Assembly: GCA_002793515.1 (NCBI GenBank)
Contig: PFEU01000008.1
Coordinates: forward strand, 6,824 to 70,823
DNA length: 64,000 nucleotides
DNA from: Candidatus Uhrbacteria bacterium CG10_big_fil_rev_8_21_14_0_10_48_16
GTDB taxonomy: Bacteria > Patescibacteriota > Patescibacteriia > UBA9934 > GWF2-40-263
Direction of reading: 5' to 3'
In this document: positions 10,145 to 43,734 of the stretch, piece by piece
Numbering within the stretch: position 1 is the stretch's first letter
How the letters are laid out: every line of letters begins with the position of its first letter
Notes under the pieces: model-generated
Databases searched by the model: none
Told to the model about the DNA's origin: nothing
What the model saw: only the letters and a program-made list of their open reading frames with translations
Program-made: the position numbers and the translations under genes

Positions 10145-10201
10145 GTATCCTTTTTTCCGAGAGGATCATACAAGATCCTCCCGAAAAGATCAATCCTCCC
10201 A

Positions 10202-10939: not shown

Positions 10940-10945
10940 ACACGC

Positions 10946-11365: not shown

Positions 11366-11415
11366 AGATGGTTATTGGATCTTATCAGTTAGAACGCTCT
11401 GGTCAAATCGTTTAT

Positions 11416-19568: not shown

Positions 19569-19599
19569 CAGACTCAAACGAGCCTGTTATTTTTTTAGA
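19566..19599. terminator. Bidirectional terminator between convergent genes
   Basis: taACAGACTCaaacGAGCCTGTtattttttt is a 9-bp stem with 1 mismatch and a run of 7 T. It has an A-run on the other side, so it can serve the minus-strand gene ending at 19603 as well. Confidence 0.55.
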
Positions 19600-19602
19600 T
19601 CA

Positions 19603-22110
19603 CTATTCAACAACCTCGACCGGAGCATCAGCTTCTGGATCTGATTCCCCTGTTTCATCCGTTACTTCTTCAACGACTTCTCCTGGATCAACATCTACCA
19701 CTCCGCCCTGACCTCCTTGAATCGGTTCTGGAATACTTGTTGTTGTCTCACCTGCACGCAATCGTGCAAGACGCACGGATGCCACCTCATTCTCTGGATT
19801 AATCTTCACAACTTGCTCGATCGCCGAAATCGCTCCTTCGATATTTCCTGAAATTTCATACATTGAGGCGAGATACCAAAGCGCATTTGAATAATTCGGG
19901 CTTATTTCCACAATCCGCTCAAGTTCTTGTTGAGCAATAGCATACTCTTCTAATCGAATAAGCATTTGTGTGAGTTGAAAAGAGAGCCCGATATCCGCTG
20001 GATTATTATTTCGCAGAGCCACAAGTCTTTCTGTCGCCTGTTCAAGCTTTCCTTGTCGTTCATAGGTCGCTGCCAAGTAGTAATGCGCTGGTAAGTAATC
20101 AGACTTCAATTCTGTTGCCTCAAGAAACACTTGTTCTGCTGTCGAAAGAAGGTTTGTTTCTTGCTCAACGGCTTGCTCCGCAAGTTCTGCATCATCCGCT
20201 GTTGTGAGGTTTCGCGCTCGATCGGCAACCGTAAGATACACACGACCTAAATCTGTTCGATGGATAGGATTGTTCGGTTCAAGTTGAATCGCGTTGATAA
20301 AAGATTGGGCTGCAAGCTCCTCAGCGCCTTGCGCAAAACTCATGAGGTCTCGATAGATGGCCCCACGCACGGCCCAGTTTGAAACATAATTCGGTTCAAT
20401 AGATGTCGCGCGAGCGGCCGCTTCAACAGAAGCCGTTACGGTATCAACAATCTGCTGTGTTTCCTCAGCTGTTCGTTCTTCTTCTCCCGCTGTGAGGACA
20501 ATCAGTTCACGCGCTTTCATCAGATAGGCAGAACTAAGATTCCGTTGATACACATCGCTAAATCCATTGAAGGTGACAGCTCGATTCAACTGAGCAATAA
20601 CCTCATCAACCGTTCCTTCCTCTGACGTATCGATTTCTACCGCTTTAGCAAACGCCACCTCTGCCACATAGCGAGAACCTGTCACAAAGAGAGACACCAC
20701 GACAACAACGGCCACCATCGCAAACGCAAAGGACGTTGCCAAACCGAGTCGTGGAGATCGAGAAAAATCACTCGTCCACGTTTTTAACGAAACCTGGGAT
20801 GCGAGCAATCCCGTAAATCCCCAAAGCAAGAACGTCATCGTAAAGTTTGAAGAGTAGAGGATATGTGTCAGGAGAAGAATAGACCATCCTGTAAATATGA
20901 CGTACGTCATCTTCCACTCCTCGTGGTCACGTTCAAACACCAACCGCCCAATAGCCTTTACCGCAACCCATACCATCAACACGAGCCAGAAAAACGTTCC
21001 AACAACACCGAGCGTTCCCAGCGTCGTTATGAGATCACTCTTCGCTCGATCAAAACGCAAAGACCAAAATGGCGAAGTGTTCACTCCTACAGGCTTGAAT
21101 GCCAAATAATCATACAGATAGGTTCCTGGTCCTGATCCAAACAATAAGTTACTCGTATTTGAGGAAAGAACCTGCTTCGTAATATCCCAACTTGTTCCAT
21201 AACTTGGAGAAACAACAATGGGGAGATTCAACTTAAGAGGGCTTGGGAAAAAGAGAAAGAGGATACTGAGCCCCAGCACGACAATCGGAAGGGCAAATCT
21301 TCGTGGATTAGGAAATTCTTGCGCCTGAATAAAGACGAACGTTCCTAACAAAAGAACGCCAACGATATTAATCACCCAAAAAACCCAAAAGTCTAAAGCC
21401 ATCAGTCCAACAATATTCACACCTGTCACGAAAACGATCAGCATGCGAAGGAACATTCCGCTTCCTCCCTCTGGAATCACACGATCACGACCCTGATGGG
21501 AAACGAGCCACATGGCAAGTCCCACAAACATGATCGTCGTCATAAATGAAACAAATCCATTGATTGTTCCGATCGTATTGAATCCTATGGATTGGGCAAA
21601 CTCAAATGGAAGATGAAGAATATCAAATATCCCAAGCAGTGCTATGAGACCAGAAAGTGCAGAGGAAAGAAAAAGCGCAAAGAGTACATGACGTTGTACA
21701 AGCGTATCTCCAGCCGTATTCATGAGCATGTAAAACAGCACAACGAACAACATCACAGAAAGAAAGCTTGTGTACTCTTGTGACGACTGCCCTACCCAGG
21801 TCTGATATCCGGCCAAAGACGTGAGAGAAGCAATAAGAACGGAAACGAAATATAATCCTGGAATGACATTTAACCATCCAGACCTGAAGGTAAATTTCTT
21901 GCTTGAAACCATTTGTCCAAGCCAAGCAACCAAACCGACAACCGTGAGCACTACAAAAAGAAGCTGTTTATTGTGTTCAAGAACACTGGTTGTCCAAGGA
22001 AGGAAAAAGATTGGGACGAGAAAAAAGAGGAGATATGTCGCCCAACGTGTGATCACCCCAAAGAGAGGCATCTCCTGACCACGACGTGATGATGTTGCAA
22101 CAGTGGACAT
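19603..22110 (-). CDS. Wzy_C (O-antigen ligase/polymerase-like) membrane protein fused to C-terminal TPR repeats
   Basis: 835 aa. About 12 TM helices in the N-terminal 460 aa with a Wzy_C-like core. The C-terminal 350 aa are TPR-like helical repeats (…AYLMKARELIVLTAGEE…YYLAATYERQGKLEQA…WYLASMYEISGNIEGA…) and end in an acidic/Pro tail. Confidence 0.7.
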   Translation of the reverse strand: MSTVATSSRRGQEMPLFGVITRWATYLLFFLVPIFFLPWTTSVLEHNKQLLFVVLTVVGLVAWLGQMVSSKKFTFRSGWLNVIPGLYFVSVLIASLTSLAGYQTWVGQSSQEYTSFLSVMLFVVLFYMLMNTAGDTLVQRHVLFALFLSSALSGLIALLGIFDILHLPFEFAQSIGFNTIGTINGFVSFMTTIMFVGLAMWLVSHQGRDRVIPEGGSGMFLRMLIVFVTGVNIVGLMALDFWVFWVINIVGVLLLGTFVFIQAQEFPNPRRFALPIVVLGLSILFLFFPSPLKLNLPIVVSPSYGTSWDITKQVLSSNTSNLLFGSGPGTYLYDYLAFKPVGVNTSPFWSLRFDRAKSDLITTLGTLGVVGTFFWLVLMVWVAVKAIGRLVFERDHEEWKMTYVIFTGWSILLLTHILYSSNFTMTFLLWGFTGLLASQVSLKTWTSDFSRSPRLGLATSFAFAMVAVVVVVSLFVTGSRYVAEVAFAKAVEIDTSEEGTVDEVIAQLNRAVTFNGFSDVYQRNLSSAYLMKARELIVLTAGEEERTAEETQQIVDTVTASVEAAARATSIEPNYVSNWAVRGAIYRDLMSFAQGAEELAAQSFINAIQLEPNNPIHRTDLGRVYLTVADRARNLTTADDAELAEQAVEQETNLLSTAEQVFLEATELKSDYLPAHYYLAATYERQGKLEQATERLVALRNNNPADIGLSFQLTQMLIRLEEYAIAQQELERIVEISPNYSNALWYLASMYEISGNIEGAISAIEQVVKINPENEVASVRLARLRAGETTTSIPEPIQGGQGGVVDVDPGEVVEEVTDETGESDPEADAPVEVVE

Positions 22111-22121
22111 AGTAAAAACAA

Positions 22122-22604
22122 TTACTGATTAGATTTGTACTGCTGAATAGCTTGAAGAACTTTTGAATTCTCGGTCATGTTCTCGAAAAAAAGAATATGA
22201 CTGACATTAATTTCCATTTGGTCCTCTGGACCATGCGCTTCGCTTCCAAGTTTTGTCAGAGAAAGATTTGTTTCTTGATCAACCGCAACTCCTGATTGAA
22301 GATAAAAAACATCTCGCAAAATATAAAAATCTTTCCTTGTTTTTTCAAGTTTCCCAAAATACACCTGACCATTATCAAGAAACACGGCTTGATAGTCATC
22401 CGAATTTGAACTCACGGAAACATCAGAGACTCCTGCGGAACCATCCATTGATCCCTTATTTTCTTGTGTGTAGTACCAAGCCCCACCTAACAATGCGATA
22501 AAAAGAAGAATCGTGATCCACGTCCAAGCCCCAAACCTTCTTTTTCCATTTTCTTGTTGAGGACGACCGATAGGACCGCGACTCATTTTTGATTCAATAG
22601 CCAT
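22122..22604 (-). CDS. Hypothetical membrane-anchored protein (single N-terminal TM, extracytoplasmic domain)
   Basis: 160 aa: basic N-terminus, one TM helix (WTWITILLFIALLGGAWYY), then a soluble domain. 11 nt downstream of the Wzy_C-TPR gene start. Confidence 0.45.
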   Translation of the reverse strand: MAIESKMSRGPIGRPQQENGKRRFGAWTWITILLFIALLGGAWYYTQENKGSMDGSAGVSDVSVSSNSDDYQAVFLDNGQVYFGKLEKTRKDFYILRDVFYLQSGVAVDQETNLSLTKLGSEAHGPEDQMEINVSHILFFENMTENSKVLQAIQQYKSNQ

Positions 22605-22682
22605 AAAAAATGTAGTAAATACGCTGGTTATCTTACCGGATCAACAAGGGAGTCACAAGTTTAGATGTGGGTAACAAAGAAT

Positions 22683-22719
22683 AAATTAAAAGACGAGACC
22701 CCATAGATCTCGTCTTTTC
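22683..22719 (-). terminator. Rho-independent terminator after the giant protein gene
   Basis: On the minus strand a hairpin AAGACGAGAtctatggggTCTCGTCTT is followed by tttaatttatt, 11 nt past the stop codon. Confidence 0.45.
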
Positions 22720-22729
22720 TTGTCCCTAT

Positions 22730-25700
22730 TTAAAGGCTCTCATCAACAATTGGATCCGTGGTCACAGAAGTCTCCTCGACAACAGGCGCTTCGTCAACAA
22801 CGGGAACTTCCTCTTCAACGACTGTCTCTTCAACAGACTCATCAATAACGACCGGAGGTTCTTCTACGATTCCCTCCTCTTCCACAGGAGGTTCTTCAAC
22901 ACGAGAAGTTTCCTCGACAACAGGCATCTCTTCTACAACAGGAGCAGGAGCAGATGGACCATTTTCACTCGTTACAGAAATTGATACCCATCCATCATTC
23001 AAATCTGAAACCGTGACTTGCGCATCCTCAACACCCACCGCAATCCAGTTGAACTCAACCTGTGCGCCAGAAGTTGATGATGGACGGTTGAGGGTAAATC
23101 CGGTCTCATCCTCATTGCTGATCCATGCTTCGCGTGCGTCAGCGGAGTTTGATCGTGAGCTAAACGTTACAATTGGCTGGAATTGATAAGGAGTTTCAAA
23201 GGTCACACGGACTTGAGTCTCCTCAGAAGCCATGCGGATTCGGCCTGCCATATCATGCGATCCATAAAGATGTTCTGCAATCGTGACGGAACCCTCAAAT
23301 TGTGCATCGGAAGCCGTAATAGAATCAGCAGAAACCACTTGAACAACCGTATTCGTTCCGCCTTGGAGCGTTGTGCTCTCAGAAATTGGAGAGTACCACA
23401 TGTTATCGACTTTCACCGTAATCTGACCGGTCCCAGCAGAAAAACTCTCCATCGCCATTCCAATAACAGGTCCCGCCGTCGTTGCCTTCATAGCGTACCC
23501 TGGAAGGGTGGCAGAACTAGTCAGGTAATCTCCAATCTGGATGGCTCCATTCTCATCTGAAACATTCACTGGAACTCGTCCGGCAAGAGCGACAAGGGCT
23601 GAGAACGTAGATTCCCCTTCTTCTCCAAGAATCAATCCTGGTTGCGTTGTCACAACTCCCATCAACCCTTTTTGATACGCGGAAGTACTTGATTCCACGT
23701 GCACAGGTGTTCCACTAGCAACGAGAACGTCACCAGACTCTACGTCCTGTGTCGCAGGGAACCACTCAGCAAGGTCGACTCCTGTTTGTACCCCGCTCTC
23801 ATCCATCCAACTCAGAAGTCGAGCTTTATCCGTTGCATTTTTTCCTTCACTCATCCACATGGTCGTATCCCCAATCGCCGTTGTAATATCCGCAGCCCCA
23901 CAATCCAGTTCATCATTTCCCCCATCGGTGTTATCACAATCAAAAACGGTTGCTCCGATATGTTCAATCACCCAAATCTGCCCCATATTATCCCCATCAA
24001 AGGCTGTAACCGTTGCGGCGTCCTGTGTGAAAAATGATCCTGTTGCCACACTTGGCGTTGTATCGGTCCCGAGTGCTTCCTGTGTTCCAATATCGAGAAT
24101 TCCGTCAATTTGTGTATGCCCTGCCGTTGAAACGGAAAAGGCCTGATTGTTTACATTTACGGCAAAATCCCAACCGGTTCCGATACTTACTGCCGTTGCC
24201 ATAATCTGCTCATCTCCTCCGATATTTTTTGTAAGATTTCCAATGTTCAGCCCAAACAAATTGTTCGTGAAGGTTCCGGCCCCATCAGCCGACAACGTCG
24301 CGGTGAACGGATCGATGGCCATCACATTCCAGACATCATTTGCATTTCCATCCGCATTATTATCCGTAAACTGTGGTGAAATACGGAAGATATTTGTCGT
24401 CACGTTGTCCCCCACATCAATATCAAGAACCAATCCCTCAACGTTATCCATAGCAATTTCCTGTGTCTGGTTTGTGATAGACAAAAGGTCTGTGTTAGGA
24501 GCTTGAATTCCATGATTAATGCTCATTGTATCTTCTAGATAGATTCCTTGATCCCAACCGGTTCCCTGAATATATAATCCGTATTCATTTCCATCACGAG
24601 GAACTCCTATTAATGGATCAACTGAGATCGCATAGAGATTGTCATCATTTGCTTCATTGGCTGAATTCTGAAACACAGCAACTTGTAATGCTTTATGCGT
24701 TTCCGTCACGTTTCCTGCTCCCCCTGCGGTGAGTTCAAAATTAATGGATGCTCCAACGACGTTTCCACCTGGGGCGTTATTCACATCCACGTCCATATCC
24801 AAGCTTCCCGTTGTCTTTGTTGAATCTGTTGTGGCCGCATCTATCGTAAGAGCGTCCGTTGCTCCTAACGTTGTTGTTAAACCACCGCCAGCAAGTGTTA
24901 CAAGATTTGAAGAATGCGTCAGGGTAATATCACCATTATTAAAATTGATGACGCCACCGTTTGCGAGGAATAGATCTGACCATTGGTTTGATGTCCCTCC
25001 AAGGGCACTTCCATCGTTTGCGGCTGGTTGTAATGCCGTCCCTGTAAGGAGAATTTCCATTCCACCTGCAATGGCAATCTCAAGAGTTCCATCAACATTG
25101 ATGTCGTAATCCCAACCATTCCCGATATACAATGCGGATGTTGTTGCTGTTCCTGCACCAGCCTCAGTCATGGACCCAACATGAACTCCCGTATAGGTAC
25201 TTGATCCAGCAGAGACATCATATGTCATGTCTGAAAGAGAGATCATACGATTTACATCACTCCCATCTGAATTCCACGTTCCATCCCCTCCATCGATTTC
25301 AAGGGAAACTCCGCTTGCATTATTGTGATCAAGCGAAATCGCCATACCACCAGCACCCGGAGTTGCAGACACATCTCCTGATCCTAAGCTGAAAAGTGTT
25401 GCCGTAGGCGATCCATCACCATCAACATTCATCGTGGCGCCATCAACAACCCCAACGTTAAAGTCTCCTGCGGTATTTGTTGTTGATGTAGCATTTCCAA
25501 CCGTAATTGTCCGTCCTCCACCCGTACCAATATTAATCGCTTGAGGATCGTTATCATTCCCAATATTGATGACGTTTGTTGAGTTAATAGATAGAGCCTG
25601 ACCTGAGTCAATATCCAACGTATTTCCCGAATTTAATGTCATGGCTGAATCTGCCGTAGACAAGGTAAGCGTTCCGCTGGTTCCAGAGGTTGAAAGTGCG

Positions 25701-28700
25701 TTAATCGCAATCGCTCCTCCTGTTCCGCCAGCGTTTGAAGTGTCTGTCGAGAGCGTAATGCCACCAGACGTATCAGCTCCTGAAGAAGTTGTATTGATCG
25801 TAACGTTTCCTGCAGCTCCTGCCGTGTCAATATCAATTCCGCCTGTTCCTGCATCTACATCGATTCCCCCAGCCGCATTTGTAGCATTCATTCGAATAGC
25901 GTCAGCTGTGGCCTCCCCTGAACTAAGGACTAACGAATTAGCCGTTGCAGAAAGTGTAAGATCTCCCGTTGCTGCCGTCACGTTTGAAGCACCGGTTCCA
26001 TCAATGGAGAAGGCTCCCGCTGAAAGGACGTCAAAAGTTGTTCCTGCATCAAAATCAATCCCCGCAACAGAGCTTCCAATAAGGTCACCGGAAGTCAGTG
26101 TTGAAAGTGTGAGGTTTCCTGAAGTTGTGGTGACGTTTGAAGCACCGGTTCCGTCAATAGAGAAGGTGCTTGTCGCTAGCATGTCGTATGTTCCCGTCAC
26201 GTCAATGTCAAGGTTGGCACCAGCGTTTATATCAACAAGCGCGATACCATCAAGAATAAGGCTTCCTGACGTTGCTGTTGAAAGTGTGAGGTTTCCTGAA
26301 GTTGCACTCACATTTGAAGCACCAGTTCCATCAATGGAGAAAGCTCCCGTAGTCAAGATATCGACTCCGCCTGTTCCTGCATCCACATCGATTCCCCCAG
26401 CCGCATCTGAAGCATTCATTCGAATGGCGTCAGCCGTGGCCTCTGTGCTTGTAAGATTAATACTTGAACCAGTCGCTGTAATATCAATATCTTCTCCAGC
26501 TGACGCGCCACTCGCAGAAATATCAATTCCTCCAGCCGTTGAAGTTACGGTAAAGGCATCTGCTCCATCAGCGGTTGATTCAAGATCTAAATCGCTTGCT
26601 GTTTCGAGACGAATGGTTGAAGCATCTTGTCCATAATCAAACGTCAATGAAAGTGCATTCTCTGTAAGCGTCAATTCATTATTTGTGGCGTTCGACATGG
26701 TCAAATCATTTTGAAAATCGATGTCATAATCCCATGAAGCTGTATTCTCGATATCGATCGCTGTATCTGTTCCCCCTGCCGTTGAAGCAAGATCGAGCAA
26801 CAGACCAATTCCAATATCTGTCCCCGCCGTTCCCCCTGAAGTTAACACTCCATGAATAATGGCATTTGTTGGATTCGTTCCGTCTCCGGTAGAAAATGCC
26901 AGTGACAATGCATCCACTCCATCTGTTATCGTAGCTCCCGCTGAACTAATCGATACGAGATCCCCTGTGAGAATCCCTGTCCCTGCAATATCAATTGCCT
27001 GACCAGATGTTGAGGCTGTTGCAATGTTAATAGCATCCCCCGCAACGTTCGTTCCCATGTTGAGATCAATCGCATTGCCTGTGTGAGCGGCTGTCGCATA
27101 GGTGATATCCAAGAAATTTCCTGTTGAAATTCCTGCACCAAAATCAGCATCAATCGCTGGAGCCGTCCATGCTCCAGAAGTATCAATATCCATGAGCCAC
27201 CCAGATGTATCAGATTCATCTGCGTTCGCAATAACGAATACCTGACCATCATTATTCGTCGTGGCCTCCAGATTCACGTTAAAAATGTCTCCTGCATGAT
27301 TCCCCGTTCCCGTATCTATATCAAAAATGTTTCCTGTCCAAGCGGAATCCGTTGACGAATCAAACTGAACCATGGATGACGTAAACGCTCCAGAAGCATC
27401 TGTATTGATCAACCAACCTGGTTGATCAGACTCATCATTGTTATTAACAACGAGAACCTGTCCATCGTTATTTGTTGTTCCTTCAAGTTGAATGTTAAAG
27501 ATGTCTCCCGAGTGATTTCCTGTTCCTGTCTCCACATGGAAAATATCACCTGTCCAAGCAGCATTCCCCGTATCATCATATCTCCAAATATTTCCCGTCC
27601 AAGCTCCAGACGTGCTGGTCTCCCAAAGATCCCCACTAAAGGTTGAGCTATTTGAAAGAAGGAATGCATTTCCTGTCGTTAACCCATCAATAGAATAATC
27701 AATCCCATTCGCCGTTGTCAGAGAATCAAACGTGATATCCATGACATCGTTTGTGGTTTCTGTTGAAACAAAATTGAACAGATCCGCTCCCGTTCCAAAA
27801 TTCATGATATCCGCCCCTGTTCCCTCTCCAACATTGATGGTTCGATCAAAATCAGAGTCCCCAATCGTAATGGAACGACTTGAAGTCGTTGTATCCAAAC
27901 TCACGTCTCCACTGGCAGCGCTCAACGTTGCTGCTCCTGATCCACCCGCGTTCAGTGAGATGGCTCCATCAACGGTTGAAATCGCAACGGTTCCTGTTGA
28001 ACCAACGTTTACATCAAGACCGGCAGACCCAGGACCAGCGGCTCCATACGTATTAATCTGCATATAGGAACCTGCATCCATGATGATGGTTCCTGCGGTA
28101 TTTGTTGTGACATCATAAGCATCTAAATAGATCCCCGAAGCCGTGGCTCCGTCTGCATCCAAGTAAATCGCATCATTTGACGTATCAAGTGATTGAAGAA
28201 TCACACTTGAAGCCGTACCGCCAGCCGACGTTGAAAGCGTAAGAGCTCCCACGGACGTACTGAAATTTGAAGCGGCATCCGCGTCCAATGAAATGGCTCC
28301 TGTTCCGTCCACGTCAAACGCTTGTGCGTCTGTAAACTGAGCCCATGTTGAACCTGCATCCTGAATCACGAAGTCTCCTGTACTTTGCAAGTCAATAATT
28401 ACGTTGTCTGCAACCGATGATTCAATTTCAAAACCTCCTGTTTGGCTTTCCGCAGCATCTACCGTGATTTTAGCAGCCGTTGCTCCAAAGTTATTGTAAG
28501 CATTATCAAGATTCGAAGAGAGCCCCAACCAACTTGTTCCGTTGTACCACTTCAAATCATTGCTATCCGTGTCGTAATACATACGACCGGTAAAAGCCAC
28601 ACTTGGATCCGCCGAAGAATTTTCAATCGCCTGGGTAAAAATAGAGTACGGAGTCTTTGTCACACGAACGCGTGGCGCAAGTGTTTCAGCTCCCCCCACA

Positions 28701-29104
28701 CTGTTTGCTGTATGAACCTTCATCTCGAACCACACATTGTTCGCAAAATCAGCAACATCTGAGCCAACAGGAATTTCAAGGGTGAAGAATCCATTCGTGA
28801 CAGTTACCGCCTCCTCTCCAGAGTCCACAACCCCATCCCCATCCGCATCTGCAAACCCCTGAATGTTTGATGCAAGATTCGTTCCACCGGTTAATGCTGA
28901 TTCGATATCAAACCAGAAGTAGTACGTCCCCGAAAGGGCTGTACCTGATGCATCAAAAAGTCTTCCGTTGTAACCAATGGTCGCTGGCGCTCCAACCGTT
29001 TGGGCATTGGCTGAGAGTGGCACAGCGAGAATTCCGATGGAAAGAGTGTAAAAGACCATCGAGATCCCCACAAACGTGTGCAGGAATAATTTGGCGGTTC
29101 GCAT
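22730..29104 (-). CDS. Giant secreted repetitive surface protein (2124 aa), Thr/Ala/Gly/Ser/Asp-rich with nested tandem repeats and an acidic Pro/Val/Glu-rich C-terminal tail
   Basis: Single uninterrupted minus-strand ORF. Signal peptide MRTAKLFLHTFVGISMVFYTLSIGILAVPLSANAQ. Repeats such as SAWTGNIFDIDTGTGNHAGDIFN…NNDGQV (x2) and AFSIDGTGASNV…GNLTLST (x3). C-terminal (V/P/E)-rich low-complexity region VEEMPVVEETSRVEEPPVEEEGIVEEPP…. No enzymatic motif. Confidence 0.8.
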   Translation of the reverse strand: MRTAKLFLHTFVGISMVFYTLSIGILAVPLSANAQTVGAPATIGYNGRLFDASGTALSGTYYFWFDIESALTGGTNLASNIQGFADADGDGVVDSGEEAVTVTNGFFTLEIPVGSDVADFANNVWFEMKVHTANSVGGAETLAPRVRVTKTPYSIFTQAIENSSADPSVAFTGRMYYDTDSNDLKWYNGTSWLGLSSNLDNAYNNFGATAAKITVDAAESQTGGFEIESSVADNVIIDLQSTGDFVIQDAGSTWAQFTDAQAFDVDGTGAISLDADAASNFSTSVGALTLSTSAGGTASSVILQSLDTSNDAIYLDADGATASGIYLDAYDVTTNTAGTIIMDAGSYMQINTYGAAGPGSAGLDVNVGSTGTVAISTVDGAISLNAGGSGAATLSAASGDVSLDTTTSSRSITIGDSDFDRTINVGEGTGADIMNFGTGADLFNFVSTETTNDVMDITFDSLTTANGIDYSIDGLTTGNAFLLSNSSTFSGDLWETSTSGAWTGNIWRYDDTGNAAWTGDIFHVETGTGNHSGDIFNIQLEGTTNNDGQVLVVNNNDESDQPGWLINTDASGAFTSSMVQFDSSTDSAWTGNIFDIDTGTGNHAGDIFNVNLEATTNNDGQVFVIANADESDTSGWLMDIDTSGAWTAPAIDADFGAGISTGNFLDITYATAAHTGNAIDLNMGTNVAGDAINIATASTSGQAIDIAGTGILTGDLVSISSAGATITDGVDALSLAFSTGDGTNPTNAIIHGVLTSGGTAGTDIGIGLLLDLASTAGGTDTAIDIENTASWDYDIDFQNDLTMSNATNNELTLTENALSLTFDYGQDASTIRLETASDLDLESTADGADAFTVTSTAGGIDISASGASAGEDIDITATGSSINLTSTEATADAIRMNASDAAGGIDVDAGTGGVDILTTGAFSIDGTGASNVSATSGNLTLSTATSGSLILDGIALVDINAGANLDIDVTGTYDMLATSTFSIDGTGASNVTTTSGNLTLSTLTSGDLIGSSVAGIDFDAGTTFDVLSAGAFSIDGTGASNVTAATGDLTLSATANSLVLSSGEATADAIRMNATNAAGGIDVDAGTGGIDIDTAGAAGNVTINTTSSGADTSGGITLSTDTSNAGGTGGAIAINALSTSGTSGTLTLSTADSAMTLNSGNTLDIDSGQALSINSTNVINIGNDNDPQAINIGTGGGRTITVGNATSTTNTAGDFNVGVVDGATMNVDGDGSPTATLFSLGSGDVSATPGAGGMAISLDHNNASGVSLEIDGGDGTWNSDGSDVNRMISLSDMTYDVSAGSSTYTGVHVGSMTEAGAGTATTSALYIGNGWDYDINVDGTLEIAIAGGMEILLTGTALQPAANDGSALGGTSNQWSDLFLANGGVINFNNGDITLTHSSNLVTLAGGGLTTTLGATDALTIDAATTDSTKTTGSLDMDVDVNNAPGGNVVGASINFELTAGGAGNVTETHKALQVAVFQNSANEANDDNLYAISVDPLIGVPRDGNEYGLYIQGTGWDQGIYLEDTMSINHGIQAPNTDLLSITNQTQEIAMDNVEGLVLDIDVGDNVTTNIFRISPQFTDNNADGNANDVWNVMAIDPFTATLSADGAGTFTNNLFGLNIGNLTKNIGGDEQIMATAVSIGTGWDFAVNVNNQAFSVSTAGHTQIDGILDIGTQEALGTDTTPSVATGSFFTQDAATVTAFDGDNMGQIWVIEHIGATVFDCDNTDGGNDELDCGAADITTAIGDTTMWMSEGKNATDKARLLSWMDESGVQTGVDLAEWFPATQDVESGDVLVASGTPVHVESSTSAYQKGLMGVVTTQPGLILGEEGESTFSALVALAGRVPVNVSDENGAIQIGDYLTSSATLPGYAMKATTAGPVIGMAMESFSAGTGQITVKVDNMWYSPISESTTLQGGTNTVVQVVSADSITASDAQFEGSVTIAEHLYGSHDMAGRIRMASEETQVRVTFETPYQFQPIVTFSSRSNSADAREAWISNEDETGFTLNRPSSTSGAQVEFNWIAVGVEDAQVTVSDLNDGWVSISVTSENGPSAPAPVVEEMPVVEETSRVEEPPVEEEGIVEEPPVVIDESVEETVVEEEVPVVDEAPVVEETSVTTDPIVDESL
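25840..26450. repeat. Nested in-frame tandem DNA repeats inside the giant gene (units of about 150 nt and about 530 nt)
   Basis: The antisense frame (ORF 25641..26636) repeats TFEAPVPSMEKAP three times about 50 codons apart, and PPVPASTSIPPAA(F/S)…FIR(I/M)ASAVAS twice about 176 codons apart. The sense protein repeats AFSIDGTGASNV and ATADAIRMNA…AAGGIDVDAGTGG with the same spacing. Confidence 0.55.
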
Positions 29105-29266
29105 ACGTTAACGAGCTTATGAAAAATCTTGTTAAAAGATTGAAGGAAAGGTCAAGTGATCACGGCGAAGAAATCACATTCTGAAAATGGGAAACGCAAG
29201 GCCTGGGTTATGCCTAGTCATTTCATCGCCAAATCACTCTATCTCTTATGAACTTCAAAAATGATT

Positions 29267-30508
29267 TTATTTTTTACGTGCTTGTACGTAGTAGATTATA
29301 GCAAATAAAACAACGAGTCCCAAGAGAACCGGGATAACTGGAATTGATTCCCACAAAAAATTTCCATCCATGTCGATTTCCTCTTGTGCTCTTTCACGAA
29401 TAGCACCCACTTCACCATCCTCTTCTAAGCCTTCTGGTCGGTTCAAGTCCGTGCCTTCAGGATACACACGCACAGAAGTACTTCCATACACCGTATTTCC
29501 AGCTCGATCTAATGCAGCCACACGAAAAAAGTACGTCCCAACAGGAAGATCCTCTATCTCGAGCGGACTTATTTGTGTTTGAAACTCACTGTCATTAATA
29601 GCGACCTGATATTCAGCAACCCCTGACAACTCATCTGTCGTTCCAAACACAAACCACGCAGATTCTCCCTCGAGAAGTTTTGTTTGTTGTGCTGTCAGCG
29701 TAATAGGATTTGGAGAAGTTCGGTCAATCTGCACAACATAATTCACCTGCTCCGTTTCACGACCGTCTTCTTGAAGCCCTTTAAGATGAAAGTAATAAAT
29801 ACCATCTTGTTCCGCAATCACTGATAGATCCGTCGTTTCTGCTGGGAGTGAAATATCTGCTTCTGCCGTTGGATTATTATCAAAACGATAAAAATACTCA
29901 CGAATAGGACTCTCTCCTTCAAGATCCTTCCAAGAAAAAAGAGCAACATCTAACGAAGACCATGCTTGCTGATCTGGATGTGTACTACTTTCAACAACTA
30001 ATACAGCCGTTCCTAGATCTGCTTCCTCGGACACGGAAACAAAAACAGAAGCTTCTGCGAGAACACTCACGTCTATCCGCTCTTCTCCCGCAGAGATCGC
30101 ATGCGAATCGCCAGAAATCGCGACACGCCCCTCCCCTGCTTCAAGAGCAAGAAACGTAATAACCATCACAGATTCTTCTGTTGAAACAGCCTCTCCTAGC
30201 GTAAATGCTCCCCAAGAAATCTTTCCGTTAACATTATCGCGGTAATTTCCTGGAGCTGTCCTATCAAACGAACCACTCAGCCTCACGTTTTGTGCTTGCA
30301 TGACGGTTGGATCGAAGGTAACGACCGCACGAACGGTATCAAGAAGCTCTCCTTGCGGATCCACATGCACCGTAACCTCAAAAAACTCACCGCTCACAAC
30401 ATTGTAGGCAGACTGATCAAATTGGAATACCGCACTTCCCGAAGCTCGCATAACACTCGGAACCATCAGAGCCACGAAAACGAGCATTCCGAGAAAAAAA
30501 TATCTCAT
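29267..30508 (-). CDS. Secreted surface protein: N-terminal cohesin-like domain, Ig/FN3-like middle domains, C-terminal TM anchor
   Basis: Signal peptide MRYFFLGMLVFVALMVPSVMRASG. Cohesin-like beta-sandwich pattern FQFDQSAYNVVSGEFFEVTVHVDPQGELLDTVRAVVTFDPTVMQAQNV…PGNYRDNVNGKISWGAFTLGEAVSTEESVMVITFLALEAGEGRVAISG. C-terminal hydrophobic anchor IPVIPVLLGLVVLFAIIYYV followed by QARKK. Confidence 0.6.
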   Translation of the reverse strand: MRYFFLGMLVFVALMVPSVMRASGSAVFQFDQSAYNVVSGEFFEVTVHVDPQGELLDTVRAVVTFDPTVMQAQNVRLSGSFDRTAPGNYRDNVNGKISWGAFTLGEAVSTEESVMVITFLALEAGEGRVAISGDSHAISAGEERIDVSVLAEASVFVSVSEEADLGTAVLVVESSTHPDQQAWSSLDVALFSWKDLEGESPIREYFYRFDNNPTAEADISLPAETTDLSVIAEQDGIYYFHLKGLQEDGRETEQVNYVVQIDRTSPNPITLTAQQTKLLEGESAWFVFGTTDELSGVAEYQVAINDSEFQTQISPLEIEDLPVGTYFFRVAALDRAGNTVYGSTSVRVYPEGTDLNRPEGLEEDGEVGAIRERAQEEIDMDGNFLWESIPVIPVLLGLVVLFAIIYYVQARKK

Positions 30509-30526
30509 AGAGTTTCTAAGTCCCTT

Positions 30527-31426
30527 CTAGACTTCAACACCCCAACGCGCAATCATCATTGAAAAATCATAATCATCCACCGTCGAGTCTTCATTAAAAT
30601 CTCCTTCTCGATCATTCTCTCCCCACATCCCAATAAAACGACTGAGATCATAATCGTTTACTGTTTCATCATTATTCACGTCTCCGATCAATCGGCGATA
30701 AATCTCATACACGATTGAGGCGGAGCTTGCTGATCCATCTAACCCAACGACCGTAAAACTATTCTCTCCATACGACAGGGACACATAATCTTGCCAAGAC
30801 GTAGTGGTTGGATACGTAACTGATTCTGAACTTCCATCCACCGTCACAAGGTCGACATCTTCATCCTTGGTTCCATACAAGAGAAACGTTTGCGTATAGG
30901 TAAACACAAGATCTTCAATTGCACTTGAAACAGACGGTGACTCAGGTGCAACGGTTCCTCCACCACCGCCACCCCCGCCTCCACCGCCTCCTCCACCACC
31001 ACCAGAAGGAGCTGTTCCAGAACAAGAGCTTGTGACAAGGGCACAAGCAGAACTACAGGTAAGTGTCCCTGTTTCAAATCCCTGGGTCACGCAGGTCTTA
31101 CTATCAAGGTTTAAGCCATCACATGTTTCTCCGGGATCCACGAATCCATCACCACAATAATACTGAAATCCACTTCCTATTTCTTCTTCGTAACTTGTAC
31201 TTGTGATACTTCCTGCATAAGGATCAATCGCTCCTTGCAACTGATAACTTGTTGATTCAAGCATGTCAGAAGCATTTGTATACCCATCCGTTGCTGGAGC
31301 AAGAAAACCGGCTTCAGGAGTAATCTGATAACTTGATGAAGAAACGGCCCCCACCCCTAACGGAAAAACAGCCAAGGCAAGGGCAAAAAATAGAATAGGT
31401 GCGTTCGTATGTTTCATATCACTCAT
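30527..31426 (-). CDS. Secreted protein with a Cys-rich module, a 16-residue poly-Gly linker and a C-terminal type-I dockerin module
   Basis: Signal peptide. CGDGFVDPGETCDGLNLDSKTCVTQGFETGTLTCSSACALVTSSC; a 16-residue poly-Gly run. C-terminal duplicated Ca-binding dockerin segments DVNNDETVNDYDLSRFI and GDFNEDSTVDDYDFSMMI, both matching D-x-N-x-D-x-x-x-[ND]-x-x-D followed by a helix. Confidence 0.7.
   Translation of the reverse strand: MSDMKHTNAPILFFALALAVFPLGVGAVSSSSYQITPEAGFLAPATDGYTNASDMLESTSYQLQGAIDPYAGSITSTSYEEEIGSGFQYYCGDGFVDPGETCDGLNLDSKTCVTQGFETGTLTCSSACALVTSSCSGTAPSGGGGGGGGGGGGGGGGTVAPESPSVSSAIEDLVFTYTQTFLLYGTKDEDVDLVTVDGSSESVTYPTTTSWQDYVSLSYGENSFTVVGLDGSASSASIVYEIYRRLIGDVNNDETVNDYDLSRFIGMWGENDREGDFNEDSTVDDYDFSMMIARWGVEV
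30958..31008 (-). repeat. (GGN)n simple repeat encoding the poly-Gly linker
   Basis: Plus strand reads ccaccaccgccacccccgcctccaccgcctcctccaccaccacc, which encodes G16 on the minus strand. Confidence 0.7.
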
Positions 31427-31464
31427 GGACCAAATTCAAACGGAAACAATGATTTAGCCAAAAC

Positions 31465-32472
31465 TTATACCGAAAGCGGATCGTGTCCCGTTGAGACCTC
31501 TTCTCCATCAAGATATCCATCTCCATCGGTATCCGCATTCTCAGGATCTGTTCCATAGGTTTCTTCTTCTGTGTCTGTAAGACCGTCCGCATCTGTATCA
31601 ACCTCTTCCTCTGTTTCTACAACCTCTTCATCACCAAGATCATCCTCTCCATACGCCTGCTCATCCCACGTTAAAAGATCCGTATACGCAATCGTATGAA
31701 GCACATTCCATTCCATATCAGTGTCTGGCATCTTTGCGTATTTCTGACCGAACAGAATTAACGCATGTTCTTCTGCAGAAAGATCCCGTGGGGATCCTTG
31801 GCAACCACCGTAGGCAATACAATGAAGCGCCTCCCAGTCATTTGCGCTTGATGGCATGCGTGCATAAAACGCCCCAAAATAGACCAATGCTTGTGCTTCG
31901 AGTTCTGCATCCTTTTCATAATCAGAAGTCTCTTCCTCAACCACCTCTTCGCTTGCCTCCTCTGCATCTATATCAAAAGACGTACTATCAATTTTTTCCT
32001 CTCCATCGGAGATGAGTTTTGAATTGCTTGAAATCGCAAGATCAATCTCTTGGTCCGTAAGAGCTTCGAATGTAACCGTTGCGATGACACTTGTCTGCGT
32101 AACAGGATCGCCGTACTTGTAGGCTCCAAACGTCAACACACCTGTCGTGTTATCGATCTCGTACTCTGGAGAAAGACTTGGAAAAGATGAATCTAGATCA
32201 AACCATGTCGCTTCTAGTAAGGAAGCGTCATAGACGATTTCTACTCGCACGGTATCAATCGATTCTCCGTTGGGAGCCACGATCACATCAGCCGTCACCA
32301 TCTCCCCTGCTAAAACAGTCATCTCTGACACAGAAAGGGAAAGCATCGCAGAACCTTCTGCAGACGCAACATGCACACCAACTTGCGAAAGCAAGAAGGC
32401 GAAAATGAATAGAGGGAAAACAACCTTTCTCATAGAGTGTATGGGGAAACGCATGTTTAAAAATCGGACCAT
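31465..32472 (-). CDS. Secreted protein: N-terminal cohesin-like domain, duplicated W/Y-rich repeat, C-terminal thrombospondin-type-3-like Ca-binding Asp repeats
   Basis: Signal peptide (…VFPLFIFAFLLSQVGVHVASA). Cohesin-like LSLSVSEMTVLAGEMVTADVIVAPNGESIDTVRVEIVYDASLLEATWFDL…VIATVTFEALTDQEIDLAISS. Repeats ALVYFGAFYARMPSSANDWEALHCIAYGG / ALILFGQKYAKMPDTDMEWNVLHTIAYTD. C-terminus DTDADGLTDTEEETYGTDPENADTDGDGYLDGEEVSTGHDPL. Confidence 0.6.
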   Translation of the reverse strand: MVRFLNMRFPIHSMRKVVFPLFIFAFLLSQVGVHVASAEGSAMLSLSVSEMTVLAGEMVTADVIVAPNGESIDTVRVEIVYDASLLEATWFDLDSSFPSLSPEYEIDNTTGVLTFGAYKYGDPVTQTSVIATVTFEALTDQEIDLAISSNSKLISDGEEKIDSTSFDIDAEEASEEVVEEETSDYEKDAELEAQALVYFGAFYARMPSSANDWEALHCIAYGGCQGSPRDLSAEEHALILFGQKYAKMPDTDMEWNVLHTIAYTDLLTWDEQAYGEDDLGDEEVVETEEEVDTDADGLTDTEEETYGTDPENADTDGDGYLDGEEVSTGHDPLSV

Positions 32473-32566
32473 GCCTCATTTATTAAAAGTATAACATACG
32501 AAAACATATTTCAAAACAAAAAAGTCACGATTCAAGCGACTTTTATACACACGTCTTTTCCCTTCG

Positions 32567-33874
32567 TTAAGACTCTCCCCGAAGAAAGAAGTGTGTCGTT
32601 TTTAACAGAATCAAAATATCAAAAAGAAAAGATCTATTCTTAATATAGTACAAATCATATTCAAACTTCATTTGAGAATCGACAACCGATCGTGCATACC
32701 GAAACTTAATCTGCGCCCACCCGGTAATTCCCGGCTTAATAAAATGGCGCACATGGTAGTACGGAATCTCCGCCTCTAATAAATCAACAAATACCGGACG
32801 TTCTGGTCGAGGGCCTACCAGACTGAGATCTCCTCGAAGGACATTTAACAACTGTGGAAGCTCGTCAAGATGCGTCTTGCGCAATATCCGCCCAACCGCT
32901 GTCACACGCGCATCTTGCTTCGTCGCCCAGGCAGGTCCGTTTGACTCTGCATCAACCCACATGGTTCGAAACTTGATAATCGAAAACAGTTTTCCATTCT
33001 TTCCCATGCGTTCTTGCGTATAAAAAACGGAGCCTCCATCGGAAAACTTAATGGCCGTCACAAGAACGAGCCATAGAGGAGCTGTTAACCCAAGGAGGAA
33101 TAACGAAACACTCACATCAAAAAACCGCTTCACGTGTTGATATAAACTCGCATCCTTCTCTTGAATATTTCGTAAAAACCATCGATGATCGACGGTCGAG
33201 AGCGGAATACGTTTTGCAAAGAGTTCATACGCTTGTGCGGTATCAAGAAAGATCACCCCTTTTCCAAGACAGGCATAAACCTGCTGAGCTCCAACGGGAT
33301 CGGATAAATTCACAGAAGGGAGAACAACCATGTTTAGCTTCTGTTCTTGAATATGAAAGGAAAGATGCTCGGCAGATCGCAACGGCACACACACATGTCC
33401 CAAATGCGTGCGATCACGAATCATCGACTGAAGTTCGTCTACCTCTTTATGACTCCCCACAACACCTATGACCAACGGAGCGATACGAGCCATGTTCGAA
33501 AAAAACACCCGTCTCCAAATCAAACTCAATATCCCAAACACAAGGACATGAAACAACAGAATCACTTTCGGAGAAATGCTTGAAAAAGAAATCGTATAAA
33601 AATAAAGGACCCCTACTAAAAAAGCTACGACAAGGGCAACGGAAAATTGACTCACTCGCTTGAGAGAAACGCGAGAAGATAATTCGTAGGCATCAAACAC
33701 ATAAAAAATCACAAACCAAATCAGGTACAAAAACGTGAATGCGGGAAGGTGTTGATAGACCACTCCCTCATCAAAATTCTCCCCAAAACGAACCATCAAG
33801 ACAAGGAACAATGAAACGTACATCAAAATCACGTCTCCGCTTAAAAGGATCAGTTTTTGCCCTCTAAAATCCAT
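32567..33874 (-). CDS. Polyprenyl-phosphate hexose-1-phosphate transferase (bacterial sugar transferase, WbaP/WcaJ-like initiating PGT)
   Basis: 435 aa, 4-5 N-terminal TM helices. C-terminal catalytic domain PLWLVLVTAIKFSDGGSVFYTQERMGKNGKLFSIIKFRTM…DELPQLLNVLRGDLSLVGPRPERP is the Bac_transf signature. Confidence 0.85.
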   Translation of the reverse strand: MDFRGQKLILLSGDVILMYVSLFLVLMVRFGENFDEGVVYQHLPAFTFLYLIWFVIFYVFDAYELSSRVSLKRVSQFSVALVVAFLVGVLYFYTISFSSISPKVILLFHVLVFGILSLIWRRVFFSNMARIAPLVIGVVGSHKEVDELQSMIRDRTHLGHVCVPLRSAEHLSFHIQEQKLNMVVLPSVNLSDPVGAQQVYACLGKGVIFLDTAQAYELFAKRIPLSTVDHRWFLRNIQEKDASLYQHVKRFFDVSVSLFLLGLTAPLWLVLVTAIKFSDGGSVFYTQERMGKNGKLFSIIKFRTMWVDAESNGPAWATKQDARVTAVGRILRKTHLDELPQLLNVLRGDLSLVGPRPERPVFVDLLEAEIPYYHVRHFIKPGITGWAQIKFRYARSVVDSQMKFEYDLYYIKNRSFLFDILILLKTTHFFLRGES

Positions 33875-39519: not shown

Positions 39520-40335
39520 ATGGCTGAATACGTGATCAAACCCAAACGCCCCATCGGTCTTCATCTCAAAGAAATATGGCGATTTCGTGAGTTATTCTTA
39601 GCACTCACCGTCCGAGACATGAAGGTTCGTTATAAGCAAACGGCCATTGGCGTCCTCTGGGCTGTATTTCAACCGTTCATTCTCATGGTTGTCTTTACGA
39701 TTTTCTTTGGTCGCATCGCACAAATAAGCACCAATGGTGTTCCCTACCCGATCTTTGTCTATAGTGGCTTGTTGTTCTGGAACTATTTTTCAAATGCCTT
39801 AAGCGCCGCAAGTGGAAGCATGGTCGCCAACCAAGCGATCATTCAGAAAATCTATTTTCCTCGTATCATTTTGCCCACAGCTTCTGTTGTGGTGTTTTTG
39901 TTAGATTTTATTTTTTCATCCATCATCTTTGCTGGCCTCCTGATTTACTATCACGTCACACCAAACATCACCGGCCTCTTATTATTAGTTCCCATGCTAC
40001 TCATTACCACCCTCACGCTTCTTGGCATCGGATTATTTTTTTCTGCTGTGAACGTCAAGTACCGTGATGTCCGCTATGTCCTTCCATTCTTTATTCAACT
40101 CCTTCTTTTTGTGACTCCGGTCATCTACCCAGCTACGATTTTAGGAGAATATAAATGGTTGCTCTACCTCAATCCCATGTCTGGAGTCATTGATGTCTTC
40201 CGAAGTACGTTTTTGTCACTTGGTTCTATTTCATGGCCCCTATTTGGAAGTTCGATTCTTGTAAGCATCATCTTTTTTCTTGTTGGTCTTGCCTACTTCC
40301 AAAAAACAGAACGCTATTTCGCTGATCTTATTTAG
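39520..40335 (+). CDS. wzm: ABC-2 type polysaccharide/O-antigen exporter permease (Wzm/TagG family)
   Basis: 271 aa, 6 TM. N-terminal cytoplasmic helix plus ABC2_membrane features (RDMKVRYKQTAIGVLWAVFQP…). Confidence 0.85.
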   Translation: MAEYVIKPKRPIGLHLKEIWRFRELFLALTVRDMKVRYKQTAIGVLWAVFQPFILMVVFTIFFGRIAQISTNGVPYPIFVYSGLLFWNYFSNALSAASGSMVANQAIIQKIYFPRIILPTASVVVFLLDFIFSSIIFAGLLIYYHVTPNITGLLLLVPMLLITTLTLLGIGLFFSAVNVKYRDVRYVLPFFIQLLLFVTPVIYPATILGEYKWLLYLNPMSGVIDVFRSTFLSLGSISWPLFGSSILVSIIFFLVGLAYFQKTERYFADLI

Positions 40336-40336
40336 T

Positions 40337-41596: not shown

Positions 41597-41601
41597 CGAC
41601 T

Positions 41602-42651: not shown

Positions 42652-42666
42652 CATCACCCTATACGT

Positions 42667-43725: not shown

Positions 43726-43734
43726 ATTACAGGT

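Follow-up and report, generated by a model that had tools for sequence, protein, structure and literature searches.

A conserved six-gene block of Uhrbacteria may encode a cohesin–dockerin scaffold and a trimeric adhesin fiber

Introduction

Cohesin and dockerin modules are cognate binding partners, and non-cellulosomal modules of both kinds occur in many bacteria and archaea. To our knowledge, the attachment of bacteria belonging to the candidate phyla radiation (CPR, or Patescibacteria) to their partners or hosts is for the most part not understood beyond a handful of cultivated Saccharibacteria. Here we describe a block of co-oriented genes in a stretch of 64,000 nucleotides (hereafter the window) from a tiny, uncultivated bacterium of groundwater, Candidatus Uhrbacteria bacterium CG10_big_fil_rev_8_21_14_0_10_48_16 (contig PFEU01000008.1 of assembly GCA_002793515.1), which encodes two cohesin proteins, a dockerin protein, a giant repeat protein (hereafter the giant), a small membrane protein (sm160) and a large membrane protein with TPR motifs (TPR835). 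We propose, with a probability of about one half, that these six genes constitute a conserved surface module of Uhrbacteria, in which a cohesin–dockerin scaffold is combined with a trimeric, probably lectin-bearing adhesin fiber, along with sm160 and TPR835. The functions given below for all genes of the block are those that we infer. The parts are all of known kinds, namely a cohesin–dockerin pair, a phage-like trimeric fiber, an H-type lectin, a WaaL fold with TPR motifs and a cluster resembling the S-layer glycosylation (slg) gene clusters of Gram-positive bacteria; full-text literature on cohesins and dockerins in CPR/Patescibacteria or on Uhrbacteria surface proteins yielded no description of this block, the nearest item being a preprint on giant dockerin-bearing proteins of Omnitrophota.

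The block shares with cellulosome-type and non-cellulosomal cohesin–dockerin systems the presence of two cohesin proteins, one of which is fixed in the membrane in the way of an anchoring scaffoldin, a C-terminal dockerin with a duplicated Ca2+-loop/helix, and the adjacency of the genes. However, it differs in having neither a glycoside hydrolase nor a carbohydrate-binding module (CBM), in its single, enzyme-free dockerin protein, in anchoring by a transmembrane (TM) helix rather than by SLH domains or sortase, in its linkage to a giant fiber gene and in its small-genome CPR host, and its binding is predicted only. A cellulosome proper was ruled out, as searches of Pfam and NCBIfam found no dockerin-borne enzymes, one cohesin per protein, and no multi-cohesin scaffoldin or CBM. 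The giant in turn recalls the gp12 tailspike of phage phi29, a fragment of which is a trimerization module, as are phage cement proteins. Compared to gp12, the giant is cellular, Sec-exported and 2124 residues long, is encoded at a conserved chromosomal locus, and is a predicted trimer.

TPR835 has the membrane fold of the O-antigen ligase WaaL and of the O-oligosaccharyltransferases PglL, PilO and WsfB, with a large external loop after TM9 that carries a GxGPGxF-type motif. Like WsfB and PglL, for which a C-terminal TPR extension has been reported (PMC2943079), it ends in TPR motifs, and a candidate substrate is encoded beside it, an arrangement also common for pglL (PMC3643930). Unlike members of the WaaL/Wzy_C family, however, it has no sequence match to Wzy_C or to solved WaaL, the three key residues appear replaced, and its family has invariant residues of its own. 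The slg clusters of Geobacillus stearothermophilus and Paenibacillus alvei combine a WbaP-type initiating transferase, glycosyl- and methyltransferases, Wzm/Wzt and a Wzy_C enzyme with or without TPR beside the gene of a large secreted surface protein (PMC2943079), a combination also present in the window. By contrast, the surface protein of the window is fiber-like, without a domain for anchoring in an S-layer, the position of the glycan cluster beside the block is not conserved, and synthesis of nonulosonic acid is added.

Overall organization of the block

The six genes of the block are as follows, in the order of transcription:

31465 to 32472, minus strand: Coh335, a secreted cohesin protein (signal peptide; Pfam Cohesin 32.0 bits, above cutoff)
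30527 to 31426, minus strand: Doc299, a secreted dockerin protein (signal peptide; Pfam Dockerin_1 27.8 bits, above cutoff)
29267 to 30508, minus strand: CohTM413, a membrane-anchored cohesin protein (signal peptide; Pfam Cohesin 25.7 bits, above cutoff)
22730 to 29104, minus strand: the giant, a putative secreted fiber protein of 2124 residues (Sec signal peptide)
22122 to 22604, minus strand: sm160, a small type-II membrane protein of 160 residues (TM helix at residues 24-42; external domain of about 115 residues)
19603 to 22110, minus strand: TPR835, a membrane protein of 835 residues (several TPR families in Pfam)

A seventh co-oriented gene lies upstream, and three terminator-like hairpins, each a consensus match only, lie upstream of the block, within it and at its end:

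32567 to 33874, minus strand: PGT, an initiating polyprenyl-phosphate hexose-1-phosphate transferase of the WbaP/WsaP type, 435 residues (Pfam Bac_transf E 1.3e-66, 224 bits)
32520 to 32544, minus strand: terminator-like hairpin in the 94-nucleotide interval between PGT and Coh335 (9-bp stem followed by a T-run)
22688 to 22718, minus strand: terminator-like hairpin directly past the stop codon of the giant (14-bp stem followed by a T-rich tail)
19556 to 19599, minus strand: strong hairpin between the convergent TPR835 and NrnA-like genes (20-bp stem), likely a bidirectional terminator at the block end

All seven open reading frames are confirmed on the minus strand with the coordinates of the original prediction, and so are the gaps of 38 nucleotides between Coh335 and Doc299 and 18 nucleotides between Doc299 and CohTM413. 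The same genes were independently called on a 55.8-kb Joint Genome Institute (JGI) metagenome contig that carries the identical stretch. The remaining gaps measure 94 nucleotides from PGT to Coh335, 162 from CohTM413 to the giant, 125 from the giant to sm160 and 11 from sm160 to TPR835. The gaps of 18-38 and 11 nucleotides suggest co-transcribed sub-units, and base composition is uniform throughout the block. Coh335, Doc299, CohTM413 and the giant have signal-peptide-like N-termini by hydropathy, and all six core products are predicted to be exported or membrane-embedded.

Further assignments of the original prediction also held. The hidden Markov model searches that it called for gave Pfam matches above the cutoffs for PGT, the two cohesins and the dockerin; the TM anchor of the second cohesin protein is borne out by a C-terminal helix in the hydropathy profile; the secreted repeat protein of 2124 residues indeed has a signal peptide and divergent internal protein repeats; and the small anchored protein at 22122-22604 possesses a single N-terminal TM helix.

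Conservation across related genomes

The synteny scan started from a profile of CohTM413, with one genome per species, and gave 38 loci, which were then searched by tblastn with the window proteins. In all Uhrbacteria loci with enough sequence to display it (L004, L009, L011, L013-L016, L018, L019, L021, L022 and L025), the genes follow the order coh335, doc299, cohTM413, giant, sm160 and TPR835 on a single strand, and the shorter loci all hold partial versions; about 29 Uhrbacteria loci are concerned altogether. This order persists down to 33-35% identity of CohTM413 while the upstream genes change. PGT lies directly upstream of the block in nine loci and an epimerase/glycosyltransferase pair in one more, whereas about ten loci have none of the glycan genes of this window within several kb of the first cohesin gene. 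As the six-gene order is kept and the glycan genes vary, the core consists of the six genes, and PGT is a variable neighbor outside it. The neighborhood of all seven genes had been expected to be conserved, which proved right for six of them in all Uhrbacteria loci of sufficient length and wrong for PGT; similarly, the bracketing of the block by glycan genes exists in this genome but is not a conserved trait, because roughly half of the loci have no PGT upstream and a terminator-like hairpin lies between.

On a Nomurabacteria contig (L038, positions 2-12728), two cohesin genes lie together with genes for a dockerin-like protein, an sm160-like protein (50% identity across the ectodomain) and a large protein of more than 1588 residues with no Pfam match; the gene order differs, and there is no TPR835 homologue. 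That such genes have come together again, in part independently, speaks for a functional link that joins sm160, the cohesins and the dockerin beyond inherited gene order.

The cohesin–dockerin trio

The recognition domains of the trio, for which the Pfam gathering cutoffs are 24.1 bits (Cohesin, PF00963) and 22.9 bits (Dockerin_1, PF00404), are located as follows:

31990 to 32337, minus strand: cohesin domain of Coh335, residues 46-161 (Pfam Cohesin)
30548 to 30685, minus strand: dockerin domain of Doc299, residues 248-293 (Pfam Dockerin_1)
30083 to 30394, minus strand: cohesin domain of CohTM413, residues 39-142 (Pfam Cohesin)

Beyond its cohesin domain, Coh335 consists of an acidic linker, a duplicated motif of about 35 residues and C-terminal TSP3 repeats (TSP3_bac E 1.4e-10), with no anchor. 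TSP3 repeats are Ca-binding. The orthologues of Coh335 range from 266 to 637 residues and occupy the equivalent position in 28 loci. In CohTM413, the cohesin domain is followed by two immunoglobulin (Ig)-like domains of the OmpL47 type (NCBIfam OmpL47-type barrel E 1.2e-7), a TM helix at residues 388-406 and a basic tail, so the predicted layout is that of a membrane-anchored display stalk. Its 92 homologues are mostly of about 410 residues and mostly from Uhrbacteria, and many of the orthologues carry PF00963.

In Doc299, a signal peptide and SxSY repeats precede a repeat module with six Cys; next come a 16-Gly linker and an Ig-like domain, and the dockerin is last. The dockerin has two canonical Ca2+ loops, DVNNDETVNDYD and DFNEDSTVDDYD, at residues 249 and 276, according to the duplicated pattern DxNxDxxxxxxD with a helix after each copy, and among the window proteins scanned such loops occur in Doc299 alone. 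The second loop is kept in all 29 of 29 orthologues and the first fits the strict pattern in at least 13. Moreover, nearly all 29 orthologues share a length of about 290 residues, six Cys and a poly-Gly stretch of 5-25 residues, and such retention of the stretch indicates a flexible linker under selection. The linker itself is encoded by 16 consecutive glycine codons (residues 146-161, window positions about 30940-30990). No enzyme or CBM domain was found in Doc299 by Pfam and NCBIfam, which gave only a weak Glucodextran_B-like Ig match. From the established biology of cohesin–dockerin pairs, the dockerin of Doc299 would bind a cohesin, plugging into one of the two cohesins in the manner of a cellulosome to give a membrane-tethered scaffold.

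The giant resembles a trimeric phage-type fiber

The giant has a modular structure with the following parts:

28415 to 29002, minus strand: conserved N-terminal module, about residues 35-230
minus strand, between the N-terminal module and residue 1775: variable, repeat-rich middle
23390 to 23782, minus strand: phi29 gp12-like trimerization domain, residues 1775-1905
23000 to 23257, minus strand: H-type-lectin-like domain, residues 1950-2035
minus strand, residues 2054-2124: acidic Pro/Val/Glu tail

It is very acidic, with an abundance of Thr, Gly, Ala, Ser, Asp and Asn; Lys plus Arg make up 1.7% and Ser plus Thr 22%. The internal protein repeats are divergent, with 72-residue units that are 54-55% identical and units at residues 846-1125 that are 52-61% identical, and Tandem Repeats Finder detected zero DNA tandem repeats in the gene. 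At full length, the giant gave no useful Pfam or NCBIfam match and no sequence match in the PDB. The orthologues range from 1890 to 2644 residues, with conserved N- and C-terminal regions and a variable middle.

Homology search with residues 1771-2053 retrieved the Uhrbacteria orthologues and, in addition, many proteins of 350-490 residues from other phyla, including Saccharibacteria, Zixibacteria, Dokdonella, Terriglobus and a Methanosarcinales archaeon. Several of these short relatives carry both end modules of the giant in alignment, without the lectin and the tail. The C-terminal module is marked by the motif DxAE...GDVxV...GRVPVKV...GDxLxxS..PGxAMKA and the N-terminal module by xYQGRL...PRxxxxxxPYA. 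As both end modules are shared, the giant appears to belong to a widespread family of fiber-like surface proteins, as a member of hugely increased size.

The AlphaFold2 model of residues 1771-2053 (predicted local distance difference test score, pLDDT, 82.7) consists of two domains. The first has the fold of the trimerizing auto-chaperone fragment of phi29 gp12, which is also that of phage cement proteins, and the C-terminal module resembles phage preneck appendage and tail-fiber proteins in both fold and sequence. The second is probably an H-type lectin domain (PF09458), an assignment with moderate support: compared to H-type lectins (Helix pomatia agglutinin, discoidin and SLL-2) and to gp53-like tail-fiber tips, the window protein itself scores only weakly, with E 0.2 for H_lectin and E 0.021 for Gp53-like_C. 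There was no Pfam match to Peptidase_G2 in the giant, and among its relatives only one matched, at E 0.017; as the lectin and the acidic tail follow the gp12-like module, autocleavage in the style of gp12 would remove the lectin.

Since the gp12 fragment and the cement proteins trimerize, we infer that the giant is a homotrimeric adhesin fiber, similar to a phage tail fiber and probably lectin-bearing, with the lectin-like domain near its C-terminus. In such a homotrimer, the conserved N-terminus would be fixed to the cell, and the lectin-like head at the C-terminus would reach outward, where it would bind glycans of a partner or host cell or of a substrate. A fiber-like C-terminus with a lectin-like domain points to an adhesin rather than to the lattice protein of an S-layer. 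The S-layer nature once suspected for the giant therefore gained no support: the protein looks like a trimeric fiber with a probable lectin, and Pfam and NCBIfam searches of the giant, Coh335, Doc299 and CohTM413 found no S-layer anchoring or lattice domain such as SLH or CWB2. A dockerin-like half-site in the N-terminus of the giant (DADGDGVVD) was considered and rejected, as it is present in only a subset of the orthologues.

The membrane proteins sm160 and TPR835

The gene of sm160 always lies between those of the giant and TPR835 in Uhrbacteria loci, and in one further locus (L031) an sm160-like gene follows a giant-like gene without TPR835. No family match was found for sm160 in Pfam or NCBIfam, and it might serve as an accessory or anchoring factor of the surface module.

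The domains of TPR835, and the canonical protein of the neighboring glycan cluster with which it was compared, are as follows:

20626 to 22110, minus strand: membrane domain of TPR835 with the WaaL (O-antigen ligase) fold, residues 1-495, 13 helices
19756 to 20613, minus strand: TPR domain of TPR835, residues 500-785, probably extracytoplasmic
56458 to 58428, plus strand: canonical Wzy_C plus TPR protein of 656 residues at the end of the glycan cluster (Pfam Wzy_C E 3.4e-20, plus TPR)

In the AlphaFold2 model of TPR835 (pLDDT 81; predicted template modeling score, pTM, 0.76), 13 TM helices, with a long loop (residues 288-358) after the ninth, are followed by the TPR domain. The hydropathy profile likewise shows a polytopic domain. 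The membrane domain adopts the WaaL fold, which is characterized by 12 TM helices and a large external loop between TM9 and TM10. A basic N-terminus together with 13 TM helices would put the TPR domain outside the cytoplasm, on the side of the large loop.

By sequence, however, no Pfam Wzy_C (PF04932) match was found in TPR835 even at E<=5. Likewise, the Pfam domains precomputed for 120 homologues do not include Wzy_C, and it is outside the 25 most frequent families in 38 family members scanned at E<=1, of which 37 are only 25-31% identical to the window protein. In the PDB, the family profile retrieved TPR proteins only, and a profile of the membrane domain retrieved nothing at E<=10. BLASTP of TPR835 against the 656-residue protein matched the TPR region alone. 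By hhalign, the membrane domain could be aligned collinearly with the 656-residue protein across 343 columns, although the match was weak (E 0.0057, probability 6.5%), with GSGPGT opposite GVGPGN. The functionally important residues are R215, R288 and H338 in E. coli WaaL, and R224, R298 and H349 in PglL (PMC3643930). Through that hhalign alignment and an alignment of the 656-residue protein with 7tpg, the three WaaL positions fall on I233, Y304 and K357 of TPR835, which therefore likely lacks the canonical Arg/Arg/His set of WaaL and PglL.

The TPR835 family comprises 4,735 clusters at 50% identity (E<=1e-3), mostly of 770-850 residues, and is large and Patescibacteria-wide; the homologues of TPR835, as well as those of CohTM413, come almost exclusively from metagenome-assembled genomes of Uhrbacteria and other Parcubacteria. 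Its invariant residues are P33, K48, G107, G181, G325, G327, W349 and G368, and its motifs FFLP...NKQ, GSGPGT and FW...RF....S. Among six distant members, five lie in unrelated, mostly housekeeping contexts; spread in this way through Patescibacteria, the family is not specific to the block. The sixth, a homologue 26% identical to TPR835 (L042), is near a large protein with a giant-type N-terminal module (25% identity, E 1e-4). A general linkage of distant relatives to fiber, cohesin or sm160 genes was rejected, as it concerns this one of the six only and a fiber-type gene only. On that contig, the large protein is encoded at 1-3565, upstream of the homologue (6001-8580) by about 2.4 kb, with both genes in one orientation. 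Another Patescibacteria contig (L047, 3731-8297) encodes tandem WaaL-fold/TPR paralogues of 815 and 700 residues.

TPR835 would most likely transfer or attach a lipid-linked glycan, or handle an envelope polymer or protein. Of the earlier label as a Wzy_C-TPR protein, the TPR part stands on Pfam matches and the Wzy_C part does not, with no match at E<=5. The more specific proposal that it acts as a Wzy_C O-oligosaccharyltransferase (O-OTase) or ligase was not borne out either, since there is no Wzy_C match and the Arg/Arg/His set is apparently absent in a low-confidence alignment, and the protein at 56458-58428 is the better candidate.

The neighboring glycan-assembly cluster

PGT has TM helices before a C-terminal Bac_transf domain and passes NCBIfam TIGR03025 with 326.9 bits against a cutoff of 295.55. 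Divergent from the block, a glycan-assembly cluster of about 25 kb occupies 33888-59533 on the plus strand. It encodes an epimerase, GT4 and GT2 glycosyltransferases, at least seven methyltransferases, a Wzm/Wzt ABC exporter with Wzt_C, NeuB, a CMP-sugar transferase, a GDP-mannose dehydratase, a DegT aminotransferase and the Wzy_C-TPR protein. Its product would be, as the gene content suggests, a capped, heavily methylated polymer with a sialic-acid-like sugar. The Wzm/Wzt exporter, whose Wzt_C domain binds the glycan cap, lies at 39520-45252 (plus strand) together with NeuB and a CMP-sugar cytidylyltransferase of nonulosonic-acid synthesis. Two further open reading frames on the plus strand, of 638 residues (51538-53454) and 294 residues (46814-47698), have no Pfam match, the former no NCBIfam match either; they are possibly novel glycan-modifying enzymes.

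The 656-residue protein matches WaaL 7tpg_B (E 8e-5), with GTRGA, GVGPGNF and PHS opposite GTRGA, GVGVGQF and AHN, the PHS containing the catalytic His, and its homologues in related loci are often a few kb upstream of the block and usually near PGT. It is accordingly a more credible ligase or O-OTase than TPR835, as far as sequence goes. A third WaaL-type gene, at 1992-3260 on the minus strand beside YidC and NusA, encodes 422 residues with Wzy_C (E 2.3e-19) and without TPR, so the window has three proteins of the O-antigen-ligase fold in total.

PGT and the Wzm/Wzt cluster may constitute a separable slg-like pathway with a Wzy_C-TPR enzyme of its own. The Ser/Thr-rich giant is plausible, though unproven, as a glycan acceptor. 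Glycosylation of the block proteins would be optional and, if it occurs, is more likely carried out by the 656-residue enzyme. The idea of a surface or attachment apparatus beside glycan machinery thus remains reasonable, with a plus-strand cluster that closely parallels slg, but an obligatory link to the glycan gained no support.

Alternative explanations

Several points weigh against the proposed module. What ties the giant physically to the cohesin–dockerin trio is synteny alone, and Pfam searches found no recognizable dockerin or cohesin in the giant. The terminator-like hairpins suggest up to three transcription units, and the orientation proposed for the fiber is tentative. Downstream, the convergent NrnA-like gene, a housekeeping gene, is likewise conserved in several loci, so order alone is no proof of shared function in these small genomes. 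In the Nomurabacteria locus, the dockerin match is below the Pfam cutoff, and the large protein was rejected as an orthologue of the giant (E 0.72). Finally, the mapping of the catalytic residues of TPR835 comes from a profile alignment of low probability (6.5%). The six genes might accordingly form no functional unit, but be independent surface and envelope genes whose order was preserved by descent in a slowly rearranging small-genome lineage, a view in keeping with the unrelated NrnA-like gene, which is also conserved, the dividing hairpins and the housekeeping contexts of the TPR835 family elsewhere. Nevertheless, we consider it quite unlikely, since the core order survives to 33-35% protein identity with the upstream flank replaced, the gaps of 18-38 and 11 nucleotides suggest co-transcribed sub-units, adjacent genes encode a cognate cohesin–dockerin pair, genes of the sm160-like, cohesin and dockerin-like kinds come together again in another order in Nomurabacteria, and a fiber with the giant-type N-terminal module accompanies the 26%-identical TPR835 homologue of L042.

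The remaining alternatives turn on the giant, the glycan and TPR835. In an S-layer-type glycoprotein locus, the giant and/or the cohesin proteins would be O-glycosylated with a glycan initiated by PGT, and TPR835 would be the dedicated O-OTase that recognizes its substrate through the TPR domain. The WaaL fold of TPR835 with its TPR arm outside the membrane, the 22% Ser plus Thr of the giant and the PGT or glycan genes adjoining the block in ten related loci agree with this; so do precedents in which PglL-type O-OTase genes often adjoin substrate genes (PMC3643930), the S-layer O-OTase WsfB has TPR, and slg clusters join a WbaP-type PGT, Wzm/Wzt and a Wzy_C OTase to a structural gene (PMC2943079). 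However, TPR835 and its family lack the Wzy_C signature, R215, R288 and H338 of WaaL become Ile, Tyr and Lys in the sole available alignment, a canonical Wzy_C-TPR enzyme sits within the glycan cluster, the family is in unrelated contexts in five of six distant genomes, PGT is not beside the block in about half of the loci, and no S-layer anchoring or lattice domain accompanies the fiber-like C-terminus of the giant, all of which makes a locus of this type doubtful. Alternatively, the giant could be turned around: its lectin-like domain and acidic tail would bind the cell's own surface polysaccharide, exported by Wzm/Wzt and ligated by a WaaL-type enzyme, much as SLH and CWB2 domains bind secondary cell-wall polymers, leaving the N-terminal module distal and partner-binding. 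A lectin-like domain followed by a Pro/Glu-rich tail does resemble the wall-spanning regions of Gram-positive surface proteins, the glycan cluster adjoins the block, and three WaaL-type genes in an organism presumed to lack lipopolysaccharide (LPS) imply ligation to other acceptors. Yet phage fibers with the same C-terminal module, such as phi29 gp12, have the N-terminus on the particle and the C-terminus distal, the short homologues of other phyla keep both end modules without lectin and tail, and the glycan cluster is not conserved as a neighbor; we therefore regard self-glycan anchoring as improbable. Least probable by far is a phage-derived element, with the giant as a prophage or tailocin tail fiber and the block as mobile DNA. 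The likeness of the C-terminal module to phage preneck appendage and tail-fiber proteins in fold and sequence, and weak hints of Gp53-like_C and gp12, are outweighed by the Sec signal peptide, a place in the chromosome that is fixed, with housekeeping genes on either side, in about 29 genomes, the uniform base composition of the block and a window with no phage structural, integrase or lysis genes. A prophage origin of the giant gene was rejected on the signal peptide, the fixed context and the lack of phage genes.

The six-gene surface module thus remains our preferred reading. Its furthest extension is tentative, and unlikely to be right in all its parts: the block would be the principal host- or partner-attachment organelle, its scaffold holding the giant lectin fiber, and TPR835 would found a Patescibacteria-wide class of WaaL-fold/TPR enzymes with a non-canonical active site that attach or glycosylate surface proteins or envelope polymers. 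If so, cohesin–dockerin pairing, so far understood mainly in cellulosomes, would hold a fiber on the cell. The block is a concrete, conserved and testable candidate attachment apparatus for a large uncultivated lineage, and would extend cohesin–dockerin biology past polysaccharide degradation. Moreover, the analysis flags a very large WaaL-fold/TPR family that is missed by Pfam and apparently lacks the textbook catalytic residues. The Uhrbacteria lineage is presumed to be single-membrane and without LPS, and the family bears on how such bacteria use O-antigen-ligase-like enzymes.

Other genes of the window

The left flank of the block consists of the NrnA-like gene, an FG-GAP lipoprotein gene and tRNA synthetase genes. 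A neighbor protein of 385 residues gave nothing useful in Pfam or NCBIfam. The FG-GAP/MopE-repeat lipoprotein gene (15962-18262, plus strand; lipobox LTGC) has 62% GC against a background of about 46%. Foreign DNA was considered for this island (16-18 kb) and rejected, as the Asp/Gly-rich repeats of the lipoprotein explain the composition. In addition, a bactofilin gene, which encodes a cytoskeletal element unrelated to the block, lies at 10946-11365 on the minus strand, between a diacylglycerol-kinase-like gene and the gene of ArgRS.

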